From: Escherichia coli
Lineage (GTDB): Bacteria > Pseudomonadota > Gammaproteobacteria > Enterobacterales > Enterobacteriaceae
Direction: 5' to 3' (one strand)
Assembly (NCBI RefSeq): GCF_024298765.1
Contig: NZ_CP101210.1
DNA: 64,000 bases
The translations under genes and the position numbers were made by a program. The notes below the pieces were generated by a model. The model saw only the letters and a program-made list of their open reading frames with translations, made no database searches and was not told the DNA's origin. Of this stretch, positions 25,067 to 36,836 are shown piece after piece (position 1 is the stretch's first letter; every line of letters starts with the position of its first letter).

Positions 25067-26344
25067 TTACTTGCTGCTAGCCATTGCGGGGGCGCTATCA
25101 GCAGTACGAATTTTTTGGAACAGCAAAAAGGTAAAGATGATCACCATGGCAAGCGCCGCCATACCCATTAGCCACATGTTGCGGTAGGCTTCTGCAGCGG
25201 GCAGGGTGTCTTGCCAGTAGCCGATAATCGGGTAAACGAAGACATCCGGCAGGAATCCAATCACCGAACAAATACCTACCGTGGTGCCCATAATGTAAGA
25301 CGGTGTTCTCGCTTCGCCAGGGCAGGCCCAGTACAGCCCGCGTGAGGCGTAACAGGTGAATCCCAGCAGTAAAATCAGGCCAATCCCCATCGCGACCGAT
25401 TGCGGGTTAGAGTTCGTGACGAGCAGGGCAGTTAACGCCAGCAAGCCGAGTACGGAAAGGATTTGGATCACGCGGGTAGGGGATTTCACTTTGCTGTAGG
25501 TGGTGATAATGCCACCAAGTGGGCCGCACAGTGCGCGGAAGATTTTGTTGATCACAATCCCCATGTAGCTCGCCGCCACCAGCGACATGCCGTACATTTC
25601 GGTCAGATAGTTGGTGGAGTAACTCAGAATGGCGTAGATAGTGAAGACACCAAAAATCACCATGCTGCAATACCAGGTGGTACTGATACGCAAAACGGCC
25701 AGGATATCGCTAAGCTGGAATGACTGTTTTTCTTCGTTATTGGTACTGCGCAGGTTGTTGTTATCGCTAACAAAAAACCAGCACAGAATCCCCAACAAGA
25801 TGTAAACCACACTGTAGATAATAATGACTGTTTTCAGGCTGGCGCTGTCATCCGGCGCAAAGCGAGAAAAGACCCACATGGTAAACACCGCCAGCGACAT
25901 TACACCGACGCCGCGCAGCCCTTCCATCCAGCCCATAATTTTCCCTTGCTCACTATGATCGCCCAGCAATGAGGCGGCTTTAATCGACACCGACCACAGC
26001 ATTAAAATCGTCGTTATCGCAAAGGCGACCTGAATACAGAGCATTACCCACAGCGGTGGATACGTTGCCATTAACAGACCCAGTAATCCGGTAATGATCA
26101 TCGCGGAAGTAATCATTTTGCGGTGTGAAAATTTATCGGCAATAACGCCGCTGGGGGCATAAAGAATAATAGCTGCAATACCAAAGGTACTCATTATTAA
26201 ACCTATCTCGGTATTGCTGAATCCCATAAATTTCGCCATGGGAATTTGATAAATATAACGTAAATAAGCCAGGTCGAAACTAACGCCGCCGCTAAAACTA
26301 ATTATCGCGAGGGTTATCCAACGGCGATATGAGTTGTGTTGCAT
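25067..26344 (-). CDS. yqcE: MFS transporter
   Basis: 425-aa hydrophobic ORF immediately upstream of ygcE on the same strand (27-bp gap); likely an operon. Confidence 0.85.
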   Translation of the reverse strand: MQHNSYRRWITLAIISFSGGVSFDLAYLRYIYQIPMAKFMGFSNTEIGLIMSTFGIAAIILYAPSGVIADKFSHRKMITSAMIITGLLGLLMATYPPLWVMLCIQVAFAITTILMLWSVSIKAASLLGDHSEQGKIMGWMEGLRGVGVMSLAVFTMWVFSRFAPDDSASLKTVIIIYSVVYILLGILCWFFVSDNNNLRSTNNEEKQSFQLSDILAVLRISTTWYCSMVIFGVFTIYAILSYSTNYLTEMYGMSLVAASYMGIVINKIFRALCGPLGGIITTYSKVKSPTRVIQILSVLGLLALTALLVTNSNPQSVAMGIGLILLLGFTCYASRGLYWACPGEARTPSYIMGTTVGICSVIGFLPDVFVYPIIGYWQDTLPAAEAYRNMWLMGMAALAMVIIFTFLLFQKIRTADSAPAMASSK

Positions 26345-26465
26345 ATCGTATTCCCATTTGTAATAGACAAAAAAAAGAGAAAAGTAAGCCGCCCTTTCAG
26401 GTGGATTACTTTTCTCAGGTCTCTAGTAATTGCAATAAGAAATAACATGGAAAGCAGAGGTGTTG

Positions 26466-26481
26466 TGTGAGAGTAATCACG
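26466..26481. promoter_or_regulatory. Near-consensus CRP site (TGTGA-N6-TCACg) in the yqcE/ygcW divergent promoter region
   Basis: TGTGAGAGTAATCACG read directly. Confidence 0.45.
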
Positions 26482-26522
26482 CTTCTGCTTTTTAAAATTA
26501 TTTGACAATTCGAATATCACAC

Positions 26523-26538
26523 TGTGATTACGATCACA
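26523..26538. promoter_or_regulatory. Perfect-consensus CRP site (TGTGA-N6-TCACA) in the yqcE/ygcW divergent promoter region
   Basis: TGTGATTACGATCACA read directly; overlaps a second palindrome TCACACTGTGA. A TTGACA hexamer lies at 26502-26507. Confidence 0.6.
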
Positions 26539-26592
26539 TTAGCGATTATGCCCTTATGCTAAAAATTATCTCCAGTTACCAGAGATAATGAG

Positions 26593-26638
26593 AAAGGTAA
26601 CTTCCCTCTCGCGGGGGAAGTTACCTTTCTTTTTTTTT
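26593..26638 (+). terminator. Intrinsic-terminator-like hairpin in the ygcW 5' leader (candidate attenuator)
   Basis: 14-bp perfect stem (AAAGGTAACTTCCC / GGGAAGTTACCTTT), 8-nt loop, then a 9-T run at 26630-26638; ends 25 nt before the ygcW ATG. Confidence 0.6.
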
Positions 26639-26662
26639 GCCTTACGGAAATTGGAGCTAACT

Positions 26663-27448
26663 ATGTCAATCGAATCTCTCAATGCGTTCTCAATGGATTT
26701 TTTCTCCCTGAAAGGTAAAACCGCAATTGTTACCGGCGGGAATAGCGGTTTAGGCCAGGCATTTGCCATGGCGCTGGCCAAAGCAGGCGCAAATATCTTT
26801 ATTCCAAGCTTCGTTAAAGATAACGGCGAAACAAAGGAAATGATTGAAAAACAGGGTGTTGAAGTGGACTTCATGCAGGTGGATATCACCGCAGAAGGCG
26901 CACCGCAGAAGATTATCGCTGCCTGCTGTGAGCGCTTCGGTACCGTCGATATTCTGGTTAACAATGCCGGTATTTGTAAACTGAATAAGGTGCTGGACTT
27001 CGGTCGTGCCGACTGGGACCCGATGATTGACGTGAACCTGACCGCCGCATTCGAGTTAAGCTACGAAGCAGCAAAAATTATGATCCCGCAGAAAAGCGGT
27101 AAAATCATTAATATCTGTTCATTGTTCTCTTACTTAGGTGGACAATGGTCACCTGCATATTCTGCCACTAAACATGCTCTTGCCGGGTTCACCAAAGCTT
27201 ATTGTGATGAACTAGGTCAATATAATATTCAGGTAAATGGTATTGCCCCTGGCTATTATGCAACAGATATTACGCTGGCGACACGCAGTAATCCAGAAAC
27301 CAATCAGCGCGTTCTTGATCATATTCCGGCAAACCGTTGGGGCGATACTCAGGATTTAATGGGCGCAGCCGTGTTTCTCGCAAGTCAGGCATCGAATTAT
27401 GTCAACGGGCATTTATTAGTGGTCGATGGCGGTTATTTAGTGCGCTAA
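26663..27448 (+). CDS. ygcW: Short-chain dehydrogenase/reductase (SDR)
   Basis: Track ORF 26588-27448 trimmed to the ATG at 26663 (MSIESLN, 261 aa) with SD GGAG; TGGNSGLG Rossmann motif. Confidence 0.85.
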   Translation: MSIESLNAFSMDFFSLKGKTAIVTGGNSGLGQAFAMALAKAGANIFIPSFVKDNGETKEMIEKQGVEVDFMQVDITAEGAPQKIIAACCERFGTVDILVNNAGICKLNKVLDFGRADWDPMIDVNLTAAFELSYEAAKIMIPQKSGKIINICSLFSYLGGQWSPAYSATKHALAGFTKAYCDELGQYNIQVNGIAPGYYATDITLATRSNPETNQRVLDHIPANRWGDTQDLMGAAVFLASQASNYVNGHLLVVDGGYLVR

Positions 27449-27517
27449 TCCATAACGGTGGTTTCTGTTTTCTCTTATTAATGATTATTCCATTTTTATT
27501 ATCAGGAAGGAATTACT

Positions 27518-28972
27518 ATGTCTTTATCTCGCGCAGCGATTGTCGACCAGCTAAAGGAAATTGTTGGTGCAGATCGCGTAATTACCGATGAAACGGTATT
27601 AAAGAAAAACAGTATTGACCGTTTTCGTAAATTTCCGGATATTCATGGAATTTATACTTTGCCGATTCCGGCAGCGGTCGTAAAACTCGGTTCTACAGAA
27701 CAAGTATCCCGTGTGCTGAATTTTATGAATGCGCACAAAATTAACGGTGTGCCACGTACCGGTGCTTCCGCCACCGAAGGTGGGCTGGAAACCGTTGTGG
27801 AAAACTCGGTGGTGCTCGACGGCTCCGCCATGAATCAAATCATTAATATTGATATTGAGAATATGCAGGCCACGGCGCAATGTGGCGTTCCGCTGGAGGT
27901 GCTGGAAAACGCGTTGCGTGAAAAAGGTTACACCACGGGGCATTCTCCGCAGTCAAAGCCGCTGGCGCAGATGGGCGGCCTGGTGGCGACCCGCAGTATC
28001 GGGCAGTTTTCCACACTCTACGGCGCAATCGAGGATATGGTCGTTGGTCTGGAAGCGGTGCTGGCAGATGGCACCGTCACACGCATTAAAAACGTGCCAC
28101 GTCGCGCGGCTGGCCCGGACATTCGTCATATCATCATTGGCAACGAAGGTGCACTGTGCTATATCACTGAAGTCACAGTGAAAATCTTCAAATTTACGCC
28201 GGAAAACAATCTCTTCTATGGCTATGTGCTGGAAGACATGAAAACCGGCTTCAACATCCTGCGTGAAATCATGGTGGAAGGGTATCGTCCGTCGATCGCT
28301 CGTTTGTATGACGCTGAAGATGGCACCCAACACTTCACCCATTTTGCCGATGGTAAATGTGTGCTGATCTTTATGGCTGAAGGTAACCCTCGCATTGCGA
28401 AGGCGACAGGCGAAGGGATTGCTGAAATCGTGGCACGTTACCCGCAATGCCAGCGAGTGGACAGCAAGCTGATCGAAACCTGGTTTAATCACCTGAACTG
28501 GGGGCCGGATAAAGTGGCCGCTGAACGTGTGCAGATCCTCAAAACCGGCAACATGGGCTTTACCACCGAAGTGTCCGGCTGCTGGAGCTGCATCCACGAA
28601 ATCTACGAAAGCGTTATTAACCGTATTCGTACCGAGTTCCCGCATGCCGACGACATCACCATGCTGGGCGGTCACTCCTCTCATAGCTATCAGAACGGCA
28701 CCAACATGTACTTCGTCTACGACTACAACGTCGTTGACTGTAAGCCGGAAGAGGAAATCGACAAGTACCACAATCCGCTCAACAAAATCATCTGCGAAGA
28801 AACCATTCGCCTCGGTGGTTCGATGGTGCACCACCACGGTATCGGTAAACATCGCGTTCACTGGAGCAAACTGGAACACGGCAGCGCGTGGGCGTTGCTG
28901 GAAGGGCTGAAAAAGCAGTTCGATCCTAACGGCATTATGAATACGGGTACTATCTATCCGATTGAAAAATAA
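27518..28972 (+). CDS. ygcU: FAD-linked oxidase (PCMH-type FAD-binding; alkyl-DHAP synthase / D-lactate dehydrogenase-like)
   Basis: 484-aa ORF. Confidence 0.85.
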   Translation: MSLSRAAIVDQLKEIVGADRVITDETVLKKNSIDRFRKFPDIHGIYTLPIPAAVVKLGSTEQVSRVLNFMNAHKINGVPRTGASATEGGLETVVENSVVLDGSAMNQIINIDIENMQATAQCGVPLEVLENALREKGYTTGHSPQSKPLAQMGGLVATRSIGQFSTLYGAIEDMVVGLEAVLADGTVTRIKNVPRRAAGPDIRHIIIGNEGALCYITEVTVKIFKFTPENNLFYGYVLEDMKTGFNILREIMVEGYRPSIARLYDAEDGTQHFTHFADGKCVLIFMAEGNPRIAKATGEGIAEIVARYPQCQRVDSKLIETWFNHLNWGPDKVAAERVQILKTGNMGFTTEVSGCWSCIHEIYESVINRIRTEFPHADDITMLGGHSSHSYQNGTNMYFVYDYNVVDCKPEEEIDKYHNPLNKIICEETIRLGGSMVHHHGIGKHRVHWSKLEHGSAWALLEGLKKQFDPNGIMNTGTIYPIEK

Positions 28973-29013
28973 TGTGTCAGGCAGCGTTCCGCGATGACGG
29001 GGCGTTGCCTTTT

Positions 29014-29043
29014 CGGCTTCTCAGGCGAGAAGCCGTTCTTATT
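29014..29043 (+). terminator. Terminator-like hairpin between ygcU and ygcS (possible internal attenuator)
   Basis: CGGCTTCTC-AGGC-GAGAAGCCG (9-bp stem) followed by TTCTTATT; 22 nt upstream of the ygcS ATG. Confidence 0.45.
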
Positions 29044-29065
29044 ACCGGACAATGAAGGGGTAAAG

Positions 29066-30403
29066 ATGAACACTTCACCGGTGCGAATGGATGATTTACC
29101 ACTTAACCGTTTTCACTGCCGCATTGCTGCGCTCACTTTCGGCGCACACCTGACCGACGGTTATGTCCTCGGCGTCATTGGTTACGCCATTATTCAGCTT
29201 ACACCCGCCATGCAACTGACGCCGTTTATGGCGGGAATGATCGGCGGCTCGGCGCTACTTGGCCTGTTTATCGGTAGCCTGGTTTTGGGGTGGATCTCCG
29301 ACCATATTGGTCGGCAAAAAATCTTCACCTTCAGCTTTTTGCTGATTACGCTCGCTTCGTTCTTACAATTTTTTGCCACCACGCCAGAGCATCTTATTGG
29401 ACTGCGCATTTTGATCGGCATTGGTCTGGGAGGCGATTACTCAGTCGGTCACACTTTGCTGGCTGAATTTTCTCCGCGCCGCCATCGCGGTGTTTTGCTG
29501 GGCGCATTCAGCGTGGTGTGGACCGTAGGCTATGTGCTGGCAAGTATTGCCGGACATCACTTTATTAGCGAAAGCCCGGAGGCCTGGCGCTGGCTACTGG
29601 CATCGGCAGCTCTGCCCGCATTGTTGATTACGTTATTACGCTGGGGAACGCCAGAATCGCCACGCTGGCTACTGCGCCAGGGGCGTTTTGCAGAAGCTCA
29701 CGCTATCGTGCATCGCTATTTTGGTCCCCATGTTTTACTGGGCGATGAAGTGGCAACGGCGACCCATAAACACATCAAAACCTTGTTCTCTTCGCGCTAC
29801 TGGCGGCGCACAGCGTTTAACAGCGTCTTCTTTGTCTGCCTCGTAATCCCATGGTTTGTGATTTATACCTGGCTGCCGACCATCGCCCAAACTATTGGTC
29901 TGGAAGATGCGCTGACAGCCAGCCTGATGCTTAATGCGTTGTTAATTGTGGGCGCGCTGCTGGGATTAGTTCTGACGCACCTGCTGGCACATCGCAAATT
30001 TTTGCTGGGAAGTTTTTTGCTGCTGGCGGCAACGCTGGTCGTGATGGCCTGTTTGCCTTCCGGCAGTTCATTAACGCTGCTGCTTTTTGTTCTCTTCAGC
30101 ACCACCATTTCGGCAGTCAGTAATCTGGTGGGCATTTTGCCTGCGGAAAGTTTTCCTACTGACATTCGCTCGCTGGGCGTCGGTTTTGCCACCGCCATGA
30201 GTCGACTTGGCGCGGCGGTAAGTACTGGCCTGCTGCCGTGGGTGCTGGCGCAGTGGGGAATGCAAGTCACCTTATTGCTCCTGGCGGCAGTGTTGTTGGT
30301 TGGTTTTGTTGTGACCTGGCTATGGGCACCAGAAACCAAAGCACTCCCGCTGGTGGCGGCGGGAAATGTAGGAGGTGCGAATGAACATTCTGTTAGCGTT
30401 TAA
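29066..30403 (+). CDS. ygcS: MFS transporter
   Basis: Track ORF 28994-30403 trimmed to the ATG at 29066 (MNTSPVRMDD, 445 aa) with SD GAAGGGG. Confidence 0.85.
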   Translation: MNTSPVRMDDLPLNRFHCRIAALTFGAHLTDGYVLGVIGYAIIQLTPAMQLTPFMAGMIGGSALLGLFIGSLVLGWISDHIGRQKIFTFSFLLITLASFLQFFATTPEHLIGLRILIGIGLGGDYSVGHTLLAEFSPRRHRGVLLGAFSVVWTVGYVLASIAGHHFISESPEAWRWLLASAALPALLITLLRWGTPESPRWLLRQGRFAEAHAIVHRYFGPHVLLGDEVATATHKHIKTLFSSRYWRRTAFNSVFFVCLVIPWFVIYTWLPTIAQTIGLEDALTASLMLNALLIVGALLGLVLTHLLAHRKFLLGSFLLLAATLVVMACLPSGSSLTLLLFVLFSTTISAVSNLVGILPAESFPTDIRSLGVGFATAMSRLGAAVSTGLLPWVLAQWGMQVTLLLLAAVLLVGFVVTWLWAPETKALPLVAAGNVGGANEHSVSV

Positions 30404-31160
30404 AGCCGAACCGGATGCCGGAATGCTGGCGGAAAAAGAGTGGCAGGCGGCGGCTCAGGGTAATAGCGGACCGGATGTTTCGCTTCTGCGAAGTTTACTC
30501 GGTGCTGATGAACAGGCTGCCGCCGCGCTGCTGTTGGCGCAGAGAAAAAACGGTACGTCGATGTCTTTAACCGCGTTGAGCATGGGGGATGAACGGGCGT
30601 TGCACTGGCTGCGCTATCTCATGGCTCTTGGGTTTGAGGAAGCTGTAGTGCTGGAGACGGCGGCAGATCTGCGCTTTGCGTCGGAATTTGTCGCTCGCCA
30701 TATTGCCGAATGGCAGCGTCAGAATCCGCTGGATCTGATAATTACCGGCTGCCAAAGCAGCGAAGGGCAGAATGGACAAACGCCATTTTTGCTGGCGGAA
30801 ATGCTGGGCTGGCCCTGTTTCACCCAGGTGGAGCGTTTCACTCTCGACGCGCCGTTTATCACCCTCGAACAGCGTACTGAACATGGGTTGCGCTGTTGCC
30901 GGGTTCGCTTGCCTGCGGTGATTGCCGTGCGCCAGTGTGGTGAAGTGGCCTTGCCAGTACCGGGAATGCGCCAGCGAATGGCTGCGGGGAAAGCAGAAAT
31001 TATCCGTAAAACTGTTGCTGCCGAATTGCCAGCGATGCAGTGTCTGCAACTGGCAAGAGCAGAGCAACGACGCGGAGCGACGCTGATTGATGGGCAAACG
31101 GTAGCAGAAAAAGCGCAAAAGCTATGGCAGAACTATTTACGCCAAAGGATGCAGCCATGA
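30381..31160 (+). CDS. ygcR: Electron transfer flavoprotein beta-subunit-like protein
   Basis: Start at ATG 30381 with SD AGGAGG 6 nt upstream (259 aa); overlaps the ygcS 3' end. Confidence 0.82.
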   Translation: MNILLAFKAEPDAGMLAEKEWQAAAQGNSGPDVSLLRSLLGADEQAAAALLLAQRKNGTSMSLTALSMGDERALHWLRYLMALGFEEAVVLETAADLRFASEFVARHIAEWQRQNPLDLIITGCQSSEGQNGQTPFLLAEMLGWPCFTQVERFTLDAPFITLEQRTEHGLRCCRVRLPAVIAVRQCGEVALPVPGMRQRMAAGKAEIIRKTVAAELPAMQCLQLARAEQRRGATLIDGQTVAEKAQKLWQNYLRQRMQP

Positions 31161-32017
31161 ATATCACAATTGTGACAATAAATCAGGAGAATGCCGCAAT
31201 AGCAAGCTGGCTGGCGGCACAGGATTTCAGCGGTTGTACCCTGGCGCACTGGCAGATTGAACCTCAGCCCGTAGTGGCGGAACAGGTGCTGGATGCGCTG
31301 GTGGAACAGTGGCAGCGAACGCCAGCGGACGTTGTTCTCTTTCCGCCGGGAACGTTTGGCGATGAACTGTCGACCCGGCTGGCCTGGCGTTTACATGGTG
31401 CAAGCATCTGCCAGGTGACTTCGTTAGATATTCCAACTGTAAGCATGCGCAAATCCCACTGGGGAAATGCGCTAACGGCGACGCTGCAAACAGAAAAACG
31501 CCCGCTATGCCTTTCCCTTGCCCGCCAGGCGGGAGCACTGAAAAACGCCACGTTGCCCTCTGGTATGCAGCAACTGAACATTGTCCCCGGCGCGCCTCCA
31601 GACTGGCTTATCAGCGTCGAAAACCTGAAAAATGTTACCCGCGATCCATTAGCTGAAGCCAGACGGGTGCTGGTGGTGGGGCAGGGCGGAGAGGCAGATA
31701 ACCAGGAAATCGCTATGCTGGTAGAAAAGCTGGGAGCCGAAGTGGGCTACAGTCGGGCGCGAGTGATGAACGGTGGCGTTGATGCTGAAAAAGTGATTGG
31801 TATTTCCGGACATCTGCTGGCGCCTGAGGTGTGTATTGTTGTTGGCGCTTCCGGCGCAGCAGCGTTAATGGCGGGCGTACGCAATAGCAAGTTTGTGGTG
31901 GCGATTAATCATGACGCCAGCGCGGCGGTATTTTCACAGGCAGATGTTGGCGTGGTTGATGACTGGAAAGCGGTGCTGGAGGCACTGGTGACAACCATTC
32001 ACGCAGATTGCCAATAA
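31157..32017 (+). CDS. ygcQ: Electron transfer flavoprotein alpha-subunit-like protein
   Basis: Track ORF 31124-32017 trimmed to the internal ATG at 31157 (MNITIVT, 286 aa); overlaps the ygcR stop. Confidence 0.82.
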   Translation: MNITIVTINQENAAIASWLAAQDFSGCTLAHWQIEPQPVVAEQVLDALVEQWQRTPADVVLFPPGTFGDELSTRLAWRLHGASICQVTSLDIPTVSMRKSHWGNALTATLQTEKRPLCLSLARQAGALKNATLPSGMQQLNIVPGAPPDWLISVENLKNVTRDPLAEARRVLVVGQGGEADNQEIAMLVEKLGAEVGYSRARVMNGGVDAEKVIGISGHLLAPEVCIVVGASGAAALMAGVRNSKFVVAINHDASAAVFSQADVGVVDDWKAVLEALVTTIHADCQ

Positions 32018-32115
32018 CGTGCTGCCGGATGATCCTGCCTACGGTTCTGGGCTGGGGACTTGTAAGCCTGATAAGACGCGTCAAGCGTCGTATCAGGCGC
32101 TGAATGTCGGATGTG
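32012..32115. repeat. REP element cluster
   Basis: GCCTGATAAGACGCG ... CGTCGTATCAGGCG palindromic units between convergent ygcQ and ygcP. Confidence 0.7.
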
Positions 32116-32163
32116 GCGTGCAGCCTACAAATCACACAAATTCAACTCGTTACGAGTATCCCG

Positions 32164-32739
32164 TCAAAGCAATTTTTTCGCTAACGTCCAGACCCCGGTA
32201 TTCGTGGTGGAAAGCGCCACAACACCCGCGTTAATCGCATTACGCGCATCTTCTTCATCGCACACCAGCCCGCCGGCAATCAGCGGTTGGCGGATTTTCT
32301 CCGTCACCCAGCCCAGCACTTTAGGCATACAGCCTGGCAGGATCTCAATACAATCCGGATTCGATTGCGCAACTTGCTTATCAATGTTGTGAAACGAAAT
32401 CGAATCAACAATAAACAGGCGATGAATACAGAAAAAACCTTCCGCTCTTGCCGCTTTCAACATTGAGGCTTTGGTACTGATAATGCCGTCCGCCTCAGTC
32501 ACCAGTTTCAAAAACTGAATCACCACTTCTTTATTTGACGCGCCTTCCAGCAAATCAACATGAATAAAAGCATATTTTCCGGCATTTTTAATCTTTTTAA
32601 CGATTTGACTAATGGTGCAGATATTGCCGTACAACACGGAAATAAACTGGCATTCAGAGTCGATTGCCAGTTGCAGGCTGGCATTATCTTTAACGGCAGC
32701 AATCACCGGATTCTGGCGGAGCAGGTGTAAGAGGGGCAT
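32164..32739 (-). CDS. ygcP: GlpP-family (glycerol-3-phosphate responsive) antiterminator-like protein
   Basis: 191-aa ORF. Confidence 0.82.
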   Translation of the reverse strand: MPLLHLLRQNPVIAAVKDNASLQLAIDSECQFISVLYGNICTISQIVKKIKNAGKYAFIHVDLLEGASNKEVVIQFLKLVTEADGIISTKASMLKAARAEGFFCIHRLFIVDSISFHNIDKQVAQSNPDCIEILPGCMPKVLGWVTEKIRQPLIAGGLVCDEEDARNAINAGVVALSTTNTGVWTLAKKLL

Positions 32740-32755
32740 AAATTATCCTTATTAT

Positions 32756-33016
32756 TTATCCAAAACGGTAGGTGATGCCGAATCCGGAAGGCGGATAGCG
32801 CCACTGTTGTAGTGTTGATTCGTCGCACAGCAAACGGCAGGTGCCACACTCCAGGCAGCCGCGATAATCAACGCGTAAGTCACCTTCCGGTGTGAGCGAA
32901 AAAAGACCAGCCGGACAAGCGTTAATCAACCGTTGTACCGTCTGACGCTCAACGGAGTCAGCCGGTACAATGTGCGGCGCATCGGCAACGCGCCAGAGAT
33001 TACGGGCTACAGACAT
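32756..33016 (-). CDS. ygcO: Ferredoxin-like protein (FixX family)
   Basis: Track ORF 32756-33052 trimmed to MSVARNLW (86 aa); cysteine motif CLECGTCRLLC. Confidence 0.8.
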   Translation of the reverse strand: MSVARNLWRVADAPHIVPADSVERQTVQRLINACPAGLFSLTPEGDLRVDYRGCLECGTCRLLCDESTLQQWRYPPSGFGITYRFG

Positions 33017-34278
33017 CGCAGACTCCTGATAACATCGCCCGCCAGATGCCACAGGCCGTGACGACGTAAATGACGCCAGAATAACTGGCGCAGCGGTGGA
33101 ACAGGTTTATCACCCTGATCCCATAAATCGCGGGAAATATCCTGCATTAACGCAGGCCACGCACGGTACCATCCAGGGCGTTGCAAAAGCGCCGGAACAT
33201 GCTGATAACGTTGTAGAACATCCCATAGCAGGCTGCGCTCGACGTTGTGATGATAAAGCGCAAACAGATTTTGCGGCTCGCGGTGCTGGCAGGCGCTTAT
33301 CAGCGTTTGTGCCGCCGCCTGCGTGCCAGTCAGCGCCATATCCATGCCGCGCACGGAAATTCCGGTATTGACGCAACTGCGCAACGCATCGCCCAGCAGC
33401 AGCCAGCCGTTACCGGCGTATTGCACCGGCATACTGTGCAAGCCACCTTCTGGCACCAGATGCGCACCATACTCCAGTGATTCCGTGTTTTTGATAAGCG
33501 GGCGCACTGCCGGATGCGTTTTAAAGCGAGCCAGCAGCTCGCTTGCCGGAACACGACTTTGCGTAAGGGAAGAGAGCGGGCAAACAATCCCTAACGAGAG
33601 CGTTTGTTGATTAGTATAAAGAAATGCGCCGCCGGGTAAGTCATCACAGATCCCGCCGCTGAACAGCAACGCTGCGCCTTCGTTATTCTCCAGATGAAAA
33701 CGTTCTTCAATAGCGGATGTTTCCAGCGACAGCACTTCTTTGATCCCCAACGCCATCGCTTCGCCAGCAGGACGAGTCACTAACCCGTGACGTTCAGCCA
33801 GGACGCTGTTGGCACCTTCTGCCAGCACCACATAACGGGCGCGAAGAATATCGTCACCACAAATGACACCACACACCCTGCCGTTTTCTTCATACAGTGC
33901 ATCTACCGTCGCACCGGGGATGCATTCGACACCTTCTTTTTCGGCTTCGGCAACCAGCCACGGATCGAATCGTGCACGTAATACACTCCAGGATTCACCG
34001 CCGGGCTGTAAGCTGGAAAACGTCGTTGCGCCATCTGGCGTTAACAGAGAAAGACTTTCGTGAGTGATGCGTCGTTCAAGGGGCGCGGTCAGGTGAAATT
34101 GTGGGAGGAGTTCCGCGAGCGCATGGGTGTATAGCCGCCCGCCGGAAAGATTTTTGCTGCCGGGAATTTCCGCTCGTTCCACTAACAAAACGGATAAACC
34201 CGCTCGCGCGCAGCGTAACGCGCAAGCGGTGCCAGCAATTCCGGCACCGATAATAATAATGTCGCAGTCGTCTTCCAT
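33007..34278 (-). CDS. ygcN: FAD-dependent oxidoreductase (FixC / ETF-quinone oxidoreductase-like)
   Basis: Track ORF trimmed to MEDDCDIIIIGAGIAG (423 aa); FAD dinucleotide-binding motif. Confidence 0.85.
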   Translation of the reverse strand: MEDDCDIIIIGAGIAGTACALRCARAGLSVLLVERAEIPGSKNLSGGRLYTHALAELLPQFHLTAPLERRITHESLSLLTPDGATTFSSLQPGGESWSVLRARFDPWLVAEAEKEGVECIPGATVDALYEENGRVCGVICGDDILRARYVVLAEGANSVLAERHGLVTRPAGEAMALGIKEVLSLETSAIEERFHLENNEGAALLFSGGICDDLPGGAFLYTNQQTLSLGIVCPLSSLTQSRVPASELLARFKTHPAVRPLIKNTESLEYGAHLVPEGGLHSMPVQYAGNGWLLLGDALRSCVNTGISVRGMDMALTGTQAAAQTLISACQHREPQNLFALYHHNVERSLLWDVLQRYQHVPALLQRPGWYRAWPALMQDISRDLWDQGDKPVPPLRQLFWRHLRRHGLWHLAGDVIRSLRCL

Positions 34279-34355
34279 GTCATGCCCCAGATATCCAGAA
34301 CACAACACCCTAACATAGCGTTACTTAAGGGAAATTGACCGCCGACACACTCTTA

Positions 34356-34721
34356 TCATTCGCCGCGATAGATACAACCTGCGGTGCAGGTTTCTTTTAC
34401 CATCACCGCACTTAACAGCGGCACAACCGGTTTAACTTGATCCCAAATCCATTTTGCTAAAATTTCGCTGGTTGGGTTTTCCAGACCTGGAATATCATTG
34501 AGATAATGGTGATCGAGACGCTCGTAGGTTGGCTTAAACGCCGCTTTCAGTTCAGCGAAATCGATAATCCAGCCCGTATGCGGATCGACTTCCCCGGTAA
34601 TTTCCAGTCGCACCATAAAGGAATGCCCGTGCAGGCGACCACATTTATGCCCTTCCGGGACGTGTGGTAAGCGGTGAGCGGCTTCGAAGGTGAAATCTTT
34701 AAATAACGTGGTGGACATCAT
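34356..34721 (-). CDS. queD: 6-carboxy-5,6,7,8-tetrahydropterin synthase
   Basis: Track ORF trimmed to [10 protein letters not shown] (121 aa); QueD/PTPS motifs ([15 protein letters not shown]). Confidence 0.88.
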
Positions 34722-35036
34722 AATTTCTCTACATGACGATAAAACCGCCGTAGAGTACCGGAAAGGCTGTTTTTTCGCATTATCTAAAACGACTTTGTTG
34801 CGCAAAATCGCTGATTTATCTTAATGATTGGCTAAATTCATTTGTTTTTCATTGGGTTGGTTAATCTGTTTTGTTGTTAAAGACTATTGCTAAAACAGGT
34901 TAGTCGATTTGGTTATTAGTTATCGCTATCCCGTCTTTAATCCACACCGTTCACCCCGTTAACCTTACCTTCTCTTCTGTTTTATGGGCGCTGACAGGGC
35001 GCAGAAACAGCTTTGCTTACTGGAACATAACGACGC

Positions 35037-36836
35037 ATGACGACACAGGTCCCACCTTCCGCGTTGCTTCCGTTGAACCCGGAGCAACTGGCACGCCTTC
35101 AGGCGGCCACGACCGATTTAACTCCTACCCAGCTTGCCTGGGTTTCTGGCTATTTCTGGGGCGTGCTCAACCAGCAGCCTGCTGCGCTTGCAGCGACGCC
35201 AGCGCCCGCCGCAGAAATGCCGGGTATAACTATTATCTCCGCTTCGCAAACCGGCAATGCGCGCCGGGTTGCTGAAGCATTACGCGATGATTTATTAGCG
35301 GCAAAACTGAACGTTAAGCTGGTGAACGCGGGCGACTATAAATTCAAACAAATCGCCAGCGAAAAACTGCTCATCGTGGTGACGTCAACGCAAGGGGAAG
35401 GGGAACCGCCGGAAGAAGCCGTCGCGCTGCATAAGTTCCTGTTCTCCAAAAAAGCGCCAAAGCTGGAAAACACTGCATTTGCCGTGTTTAGCCTCGGCGA
35501 TAGCTCTTATGAATTTTTCTGCCAGTCCGGGAAAGATTTTGACAGCAAGCTGGCGGAACTGGGCGGTGAACGCCTGCTCGACCGTGTCGATGCCGACGTT
35601 GAATACCAGGCTGCTGCCATCGAGTGGCGCGCCCGCGTGGTTGATGCGCTTAAATCGCGTGCGCCTGTCACGGCACCTTCGCAATCCGTCGCTACTGGCG
35701 CGGTAAATGAAATCCACACCAGCCCGTACAGCAAAGACGCGCCGCTGGTGGCGAGCCTTTCGGTTAACCAGAAAATTACCGGGCGTAACTCTGAAAAAGA
35801 CGTTCGCCATATCGAAATTGACTTAGGTGACTCTGGCCTGCGTTACCAGCCGGGTGACGCGCTGGGCGTCTGGTATCAGAACGATCCGGCACTGGTGAAA
35901 GAACTTGTCGAACTGCTGTGGCTGAAAGGCGATGAACCTGTCACCGTTGACGGCAAAACGCTGACCCTGAGCGAAGCGCTACAGTGGCACTTTGAACTGA
36001 CCGTCAACACCGCGAATATTGTTGAGAACTACGCCACGCTTACCCGCAGCGAAACGCTGCTGCCGCTGGTGGGCGATAAAGCGAAGTTACAGCATTACGC
36101 CGCGACCACGCCGATTGTTGACATGGTGCGTTTCTCTCCGGCGCAACTGGATGCCGAAGCGCTGATTAACCTGCTGCGCCCGCTGACCCCGCGCCTGTAT
36201 TCCATCGCCTCCTCGCAGGCGGAAGTCGAGAACGAAGTACACGTCACCGTTGGCGTGGTGCGTTACGACGTGGAAGGCCGCGCCCGTGCCGGTGGTGCCT
36301 CCAGCTTCCTTGCGGACCGCGTGGAAGAAGAGGGCGAAGTCCGCGTATTTATCGAACATAACGACAACTTCCGCCTGCCAGCCAACCCAGAAACCCCGGT
36401 GATTATGATTGGCCCAGGCACCGGCATCGCGCCGTTCCGCGCCTTTATGCAGCAACGCGCCGCCGACGAAGCGCCGGGGAAAAACTGGCTGTTCTTTGGC
36501 AACCCGCACTTTACGGAAGATTTCCTCTACCAGGTGGAATGGCAGCGCTACGTCAAAGAGGGCGTGCTGACGCGTATCGATCTTGCCTGGTCGCGCGATC
36601 AAAAAGAAAAAATTTACGTACAAGACAAACTGCGCGAACAGGGCGCGGAGCTGTGGCGCTGGATCAATGACGGTGCCCATATTTATGTCTGCGGCGACGC
36701 TAATCGCATGGCGAAAGACGTTGAGCAGGCACTTCTGGAAGTGATTGCCGAATTTGGTGGCATGGACACCGAAGCGGCGGATGAATTTTTAAGTGAGCTG
36801 CGCGTAGAGCGCCGTTATCAGCGAGATGTCTACTAA
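35037..36836 (+). CDS. cysJ: Sulfite reductase [NADPH] flavoprotein alpha component
   Basis: 599-aa ORF with flavodoxin and FAD/NADPH-reductase domains. Confidence 0.95.

Follow-up and report, generated by a model that had tools for sequence, protein, structure and literature searches.

A conserved terminator-like hairpin between ygcU and ygcS in the ygc gene row of Escherichia coli

Introduction

Two intercistronic intrinsic terminators of E. coli, the rplL-rpoB attenuator and the rpsU-dnaG terminator T1, are what we take to be the closest described counterparts of the element treated in this work. In arrangements of this type the expression of the distal genes relies on read-through, and its level is reduced and fixed. 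Intercistronic stem-loops can also serve to stabilise the message, and the REP elements in malE-malF are presumably the example to which the hairpins of our locus can be likened. A different kind of system is found in Bacillus subtilis, where the known targets of GlpP are all terminators located in 5' UTRs next to a binding site (PMC9604022).

The ygc cluster of E. coli encodes a kinase, dehydrogenases, an electron-transfer flavoprotein (genes ygcR and ygcQ), two transporters and a GlpP-like regulator, and its pathway is uncharacterised. Five of its genes form the co-directional row ygcW-U-S-R-Q of a sugar-catabolism operon. Since ygcS, ygcR and ygcQ overlap one another and the spacer between ygcW and ygcU shows no structure (z -0.84), the ygcU-ygcS junction is the sole structured break in this row. 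Beyond the row, the spacer between the convergent genes ygcQ and ygcP (32036-32147) has a predicted fold of -53 kcal/mol (z -2.4) and sub-threshold Rfam matches on both strands to naRNA4, which we take to be a REP-derived RNA. Here we analyse the hairpin at the ygcU-ygcS junction, named HP2, together with its relatives in other bacteria and the two leader elements of the same cluster.

Materials and Methods

The window is the whole 64-kb stretch of E. coli DNA that was analysed, and all positions are window coordinates unless stated otherwise. It is 100% identical to E. coli strain 104 across 701 nt and corresponds to the minus strand of NC_000913.3, with the K-12 coordinate equal to 2926936 minus the window coordinate. 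Related loci were collected by a YgcU scan with one genome per species, which gave 63 loci, mostly of Enterobacterales with the same gene order. Besides the general terminator scan of the window, a stricter scan was run that asked for a stem of at least 8 bp, at least five G-C pairs and at least five T in 8 nt. The features of the locus are collected in Table 1.

Table 1. Genes, hairpins and regulatory elements around the ygcU-ygcS junction, in window coordinates.
Feature	Coordinates	Strand	Remarks
ygcE	23562-25040	-	
yqcE	25067-26344	-	
yqcE leader element	26369-26430	-	second copy
ygcW leader element	26575-26638	+	antiterminator helix, terminator, T9
ygcW	26663-27448	+	
ygcU	27518-28972	+	stop codon TAA at 28970-28972
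HP1	28979-29010	+	13 pairs including 3 G·U, loop CGAUGA, -22.4 kcal/mol (z -4.5)
Short U run after HP1	29011-29013	+	UUUU if the closing A-U pair is open; doubles as spacer to HP2
HP2	29014-29035	+	CGGCTTCTC-AGGC-GAGAAGCCG, 9-bp stem, -15.6 kcal/mol
U-rich tail	29036-29043	+	TTCTTATT (RNA UUCUUAUU)
Conserved ACCGGAC	29044-29050	+	may pair with ygcS codons 5-6 (CCGGU, 29078-29082)
Shine-Dalgarno GAAGGGG	29054-29060	+	serves the conserved (K-12) ygcS start
ygcS	29066-30403	+	MFS transporter, 445 aa, from the conserved start codon
ygcR and ygcQ	end at 32017	+	
ygcP	32164-32739	-	GlpP-family protein, PF04309 across full length
ygcP, ygcO, ygcN		-	gene row

Results and Discussion

The spacer between ygcU and ygcS is 93 nt long (28973-29065). 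HP2 is formed in it by nine perfect pairs of 29014-29022 with 29027-29035, six of them G-C, around the loop AGGC. The tail that follows has U at six of its eight positions and is broken at positions 3 and 6, and 22 nt lie between it and the ygcS ATG at 29066. A preliminary description of this DNA had given the position and sequence of the hairpin, the 93-bp gap and the 22-nt distance to the ygcS start, and all of these were confirmed when the coordinates were rechecked. The RNA of HP2 folds at -15.6 kcal/mol compared with -5.65 +/- 2.06 for shuffled sequences (z -4.83), and none of the 200 shuffles equals it. Stem and loop are of the size found in intrinsic terminators (~5-14 bp with a loop of 3-8 nt) and lie on the transcribed strand; where a terminator would have a U-tract of ~7-9 nt after the stem, HP2 has its interrupted tail with six U in eight, and the orthologs have 3-8 T in the first 8 nt.

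HP2 is picked up by the terminator scan of the window. The stricter scan finds 10 sites on both strands of the 64-kb window, as against 2.1 +/- 1.2 in dinucleotide shuffles, so that a chance occurrence in the ygcU-ygcS spacer is unlikely; for the sense strand of these 93 nt the expectation of a chance site is ~0.0015. No promoter-like site was found between HP2 and ygcS in the window scan, and an Rfam scan of 24000-36000 (E <= 10) gave no match in the spacer.

Directly upstream of HP2 lies another hairpin, HP1, which is the stronger of the two and was overlooked in the preliminary description. The complete spacer, with both hairpins, folds at -41.7 kcal/mol (z -3.9). HP1 is confined to Escherichia, and compared with Citrobacter and other genera it is an insertion. 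Membership of HP1 and HP2 in the REP, BIME or ERIC families was considered and rejected on the grounds that they are found at a single site in each of 5092 E. coli genomes, and neither pattern has a further copy within the 64-kb window.

HP2 is conserved as a paired structure. A hairpin orthologous to it (GGCTTCYC-loop-GRGAAGCC) is found in 34 Enterobacteriaceae loci, at a distance of 19-33 nt 5' of the ygcS ATG. In the alignment of these hairpins 88% of the cells are paired, compared with 41-57% for slid partners, and double-sided changes occur at nine of the ten pairs; none of 500 shuffles matches the observed values. The structure is also strand-specific. U·G pairs with the U in the 5' arm were counted 12 times at one HP2 pair and 8 and 5 times at two more, and since such a pair is an A·C mismatch on the opposite strand, it is the sense RNA that is constrained, not a palindrome in the DNA. 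A DNA operator palindrome, which we had considered, is ruled out by these G·U pairs.

The tail is conserved to a large degree as well. The 8 nt 3' of the stem contain 5.45 T on average, with five or more in 26 of the 31 distinct sequences and four or fewer in the other 5, and some relatives have a canonical T7-8 run, such as the T8 of locus L015, while the tail of locus L011 is among the weak ones. Judged by these alignments HP2 qualifies as an intrinsic-terminator-like element under selection, because its orthologs combine compensatory changes and sense-only G·U pairs with the U-rich tail.

The position of HP2 within the spacer is fixed on one side only. Its distance from the ygcU stop ranges from ~8 to 200 nt among the loci, whereas its distance to the ygcS ATG stays within the 19-33 nt given above. 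All insertions in the spacer lie 5' of HP2, and in this way the hairpin, its tail and the ribosome-binding site remain adjacent. Longer insertions of ERIC-like appearance were recognised by eye in this spacer in Klebsiella, Raoultella, C. koseri and one Enterobacter. Insertions of 50-190 nt that resemble ERIC/IRU elements, a likeness judged by eye against the consensus, are present in transcribed spacers of the cluster: in the ygcU-ygcS spacer of loci L007, L008, L011 and L057, always upstream of HP2, and upstream of yqcE in L007 and L013.

By looking beyond the orthologs of HP2 we see that a G+C-rich hairpin stands directly 3' of ygcU in every Enterobacterales locus, even where ygcU is the last gene. 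In the more distant genera this hairpin is non-homologous to HP2 and comes with or without a U-tract. For example, Rahnella and some Serratia have a hairpin without a U-tract, and Erwinia, Pantoea and some Serratia, in which the gene row ends with ygcU, carry a terminator-like hairpin behind it. As far as can be read from these loci, it is the hairpin that is retained everywhere, and not a full terminator.

The gene order of Erwinia, Pantoea and those Serratia brings up one alternative, namely that HP2 is an evolutionary relic: it would be the terminator that once closed an ancestral ygcWU unit, before ygcSRQ were joined downstream, and would now be decaying and without a role. The degraded U-tract of E. 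coli would fit such a history. However, both the sequence and the pairing of the hairpin are kept across genera in which the surrounding spacer cannot be aligned, and this, together with the compensatory changes, indicates ongoing selection; we consider a relic improbable.

The retention of the hairpin where the U-tract is weak or absent leads to the chief rival of a terminator, which is an element for mRNA stability or processing with little or no termination. In one variant the tandem hairpins would block 3'-to-5' exonucleases after an endonucleolytic cleavage and thereby stabilise ygcWU. In an alternative variant they would form a 5' stem-loop, or an insulator, for the ygcS ribosome-binding site. 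Differences in expression would in that event be due to decay and not to termination. The gain in Escherichia of a second stable hairpin without a good U-tract is in line with a stabilising function, and so is the steady distance to the ygcS start next to the variable distance to the ygcU stop. Yet a pure exonuclease barrier needs no U-rich tail, while such a tail is kept in 26/31 of the sequences and is a canonical T7-8 in some of them. We regard a purely stabilising element as possible, though doubtful. The two roles, termination and stabilisation, are not mutually exclusive.

Another reading of the same region comes from the annotation of ygcS. In strain 104 and in most RefSeq annotation of E. 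coli, ygcS begins at 28994, within the loop of HP1, and thus covers both hairpins, whereas the K-12 start is the equivalent of 29066. The ATG at 28994 is in frame and opens an ORF of 469 aa, as annotated by PGAP, and the region would then be coding for a 24-residue N-terminal extension of YgcS (MTGRCLFGFSGEKPFLLPDNEGVK). Against this, the homology of YgcS begins at MNTSP in all relatives and the extension has no match to protein families. The spacer lengths vary widely and in steps that are not whole codons, e.g., 52, 59, 61 and 185 nt; beyond Escherichia an upstream start in the same frame is lacking in most loci, and a stop codon stands at -12 in several. Moreover, the ATG at 28994 is placed in a hairpin loop and has no Shine-Dalgarno sequence, in contrast to the start at 29066, which has a conserved one. 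We give a coding function scarcely any credence, and the long ygcS start used by most RefSeq records of E. coli is probably an annotation error.

The ribosome-binding site of ygcS has a reported distance of 18 nt to the HP2 tail. In this part of the transcript 29043-29057 can pair with 29073-29083, where UACCGG and UGAAG, the latter a part of the Shine-Dalgarno sequence, face CUUCACCGGUG of codons 3-6 (-11.9 kcal/mol). A helix that occludes the Shine-Dalgarno sequence in this manner is a recurrent prediction in Escherichia, Citrobacter and Klebsiella, and both of its sides are near-invariant, including synonymous positions; its z is just -1.5 to -2.2 and covariation is absent. Such a helix may represent translational control of ygcS, or nothing.

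The regulator of the cluster, YgcP, is recognised by Pfam over its full length as PF04309 (G3P_antiterm), and an NCBIfam search of the protein gave no family. The leaders of ygcW and yqcE have in common a 65-nt element that consists of RTTACY-AGAGA-N-GAGAAARGTAAY, a long terminator stem and 7-9 uninterrupted T. RTTACY pairs with RGTAAY of the terminator 5' arm, with 97% of the cells paired and 14 of them compensatory, and by its predicted pairing the element is a classical antiterminator/terminator alternative. R1, the covariance model that we built from it, gives 76.3 and 71.3 bits on the two leaders and, in a search of 62 related loci, finds the element twice wherever both genes are present. 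The element is distributed across Enterobacterales, and some Firmicute loci (L055, L063 and L064) have at least one copy of it. In Term-seq experiments 3' ends were found inside the T-runs of both the ygcW and the yqcE leaders (Adams et al., 2021; PMC7815308). The element is likely to be the target of YgcP, as a protein of the GlpP family, and the best explanation places the on/off control in the pair of leader elements that precede ygcW and yqcE. As a separate observation, two CRP-like palindromes, TGTGATCGTAATCACA at 26523-26538 and TGTGAGAGTAATCACG at 26466-26481, are present in the divergent yqcE/ygcW promoter region, and the yqcE/ygcW genes are reportedly mentioned in papers on CRP-site prediction.

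That HP2 is an attenuator comparable to the one in the ygcW leader, or a target of YgcP, is not supported by our results, which on this point disagree with the preliminary description. The leader element is absent from the junction: R1 has no match in 28973-29065 with filters off and E <= 10, nor at the ygcU-ygcS junction of the 62 related loci, and a regular-expression scan for the leader element agrees. There is also no conserved competing helix, as the partners predicted for the 5' arm of HP2 lie at non-homologous upstream places, species by species. A GlpP-type target would be located in a 5' UTR directly after the promoter, and HP2 sits in the ygcU-ygcS spacer, 2.4 kb away from the leader of ygcW; its tail is interrupted, in contrast to the uninterrupted runs of 7-9 T in the leaders. 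HP2 lacks the defining features of a GlpP-type target that were tested.

Some likeness between the stems does exist. The HP2 orthologs, GGCTTCCC-N4-GGGAAGCC, and the upper stem of the terminator in the ygcW leader have a 6-bp stem CTTCCC/GGGAAG in common, which is seen by comparing window positions 29015-29034 with 26600-26621 and the loci L013, L016 and L043. This stem is also found in the Rahnella hairpin after ygcU and not in those of Cedecea, Serratia and Limnobaculum or in the yqcE leader, and its sharing is possibly due to chance. With a GlpP-family gene, ygcP, within the cluster, the shared CUUCCC/GGGAAG stem could be taken to point to a conditional intra-operon terminator, in which YgcP or another factor or ligand suppresses termination at HP1/HP2 and ygcSRQ are induced second. 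But the 65-nt leader element and a conserved competing helix are both missing at the junction, the invariant positions of the leader are in its lower stem and upstream segment and not in the upper stem, the upper stem of the yqcE leader differs, and the documented GlpP targets are 5'-UTR terminators. We hold a conditional terminator to be quite unlikely, and its more specific form, in which a factor reads HP2 (with HP1) through recognition of the CUUCCC/GGGAAG stem and a two-tier induction results, to be even less likely. If true, the enzymes of ygcW and ygcU would be made first and the transporter and electron-transfer genes would be expressed second, and with HP2 a GlpP-family antiterminator would for the first time have an intercistronic target.

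Published 3'-end data were consulted as well. We searched the Term-seq tables of Adams et al. (2021) for gene names and coordinate prefixes and found no 3' end in K-12 28978xx-28980xx. The ygc operon is off in the standard media of these experiments, and since transcription probably stops at the leader in such media, the silence at the junction is uninformative. The same study reports a 3' end within the first ~100 nt of ygcN (window ~34195 on the minus strand; K-12 2892741 on the plus strand), the first gene of the ygcNOP row, which encodes the antiterminator. In supplementary files 1 and 3 of PMC7815308 the 3' end of the ygcW leader (2900311) is ~10 nt above the NC_000913.3 position of the printed sequence, and an offset is therefore needed when table coordinates are used at the ygc locus. 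The ygc genes are not mentioned in the SMRT-Cappable-seq supplements. Literature searches on ygcU or ygcS yielded no paper in which ygcU is paired with 'terminator', and the one recent mention of ygcU deals with D-serine and is irrelevant to the hairpin.

A more probable mechanism, to which we assign a probability of roughly 0.55, is that HP2 is a constitutive partial intrinsic terminator, the hairpin of which, doubled in Escherichia, also acts as a 3' protector of the ygcWU RNA. According to this model HP2, following HP1 in Escherichia, would fold in the sense transcript just past ygcU and, together with the U-rich tail, would terminate constitutively and with partial efficiency. A fraction of the polymerases coming from the ygcW promoter would stop here and release a ygcWU mRNA with protective 3' hairpins, whilst the remaining polymerases would continue into ygcS-ygcR-ygcQ, so that the distal genes would depend on read-through. 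As a net outcome the distal genes would be expressed at a constant level below that of ygcW and ygcU, and no YgcP-controlled switch would be involved. We infer that termination occurs at HP2, that it is partial and that it lowers the expression of ygcSRQ. The preliminary description had proposed stepwise or antiterminated expression; as the conserved, covarying hairpin is terminator-like and its U-rich tail is kept, some step-down across the junction is plausible, while the antitermination part of the proposal finds no support here.

Three points speak against a partial terminator. One would expect the products of ygcR and ygcQ to be required along with that of ygcU, and a step-down between them is less obviously useful. 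In addition, the E. coli U-tract, UUCUUAUU, is interrupted, 5/31 relatives have four T or fewer, and the U-tract is missing in Rahnella and some Serratia. Finally, the Term-seq tables list no 3' end at the junction, although transcription probably does not reach it in the media used.

If a partial terminator is present, HP2 marks the likely split of the five-gene ygcW-Q row into two expression levels, and this split point can be of use once the ygc pathway is studied. The stakes are modest: HP2 is an ordinary element in an uncharacterised operon, and the paired leader motif is the more notable one. The real regulatory element of the cluster is now better placed, as a 65-nt element that is present in two copies and has no match in Rfam.

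Comparison with Known Systems

Among the known systems, the B. subtilis GlpP leaders of glpD, glpFK and glpTQ (PMC9604022) resemble the ygc cluster in that a GlpP-family protein is encoded (YgcP, PF04309) and in that the ygcW and yqcE leaders have the expected binding region and terminator in a 5' UTR. HP2 differs from these leaders, as it is intercistronic and has neither the 65-nt leader element nor an antiterminator helix.

The REP elements of malE-malF are similar to HP1 and HP2 in being stable hairpins, tandem in the case of Escherichia, located 3' of the proximal gene, where they could protect the upstream mRNA from 3' exonucleases. Unlike REP elements, HP1 and HP2 are single-copy in the genome, do not follow the REP consensus and are accompanied by a U-rich tail.

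With respect to the rplL-rpoB attenuator and the rpsU-dnaG terminator T1, the differences are that termination at HP2 is predicted, that its U-tract is interrupted, that HP1 precedes it in Escherichia, and that the ygc operon is uncharacterised and silent in standard media. The likeness lies in the design itself: in all three cases a G+C-rich stem-loop followed by a U-rich tract is placed between co-transcribed genes, with no promoter behind it.
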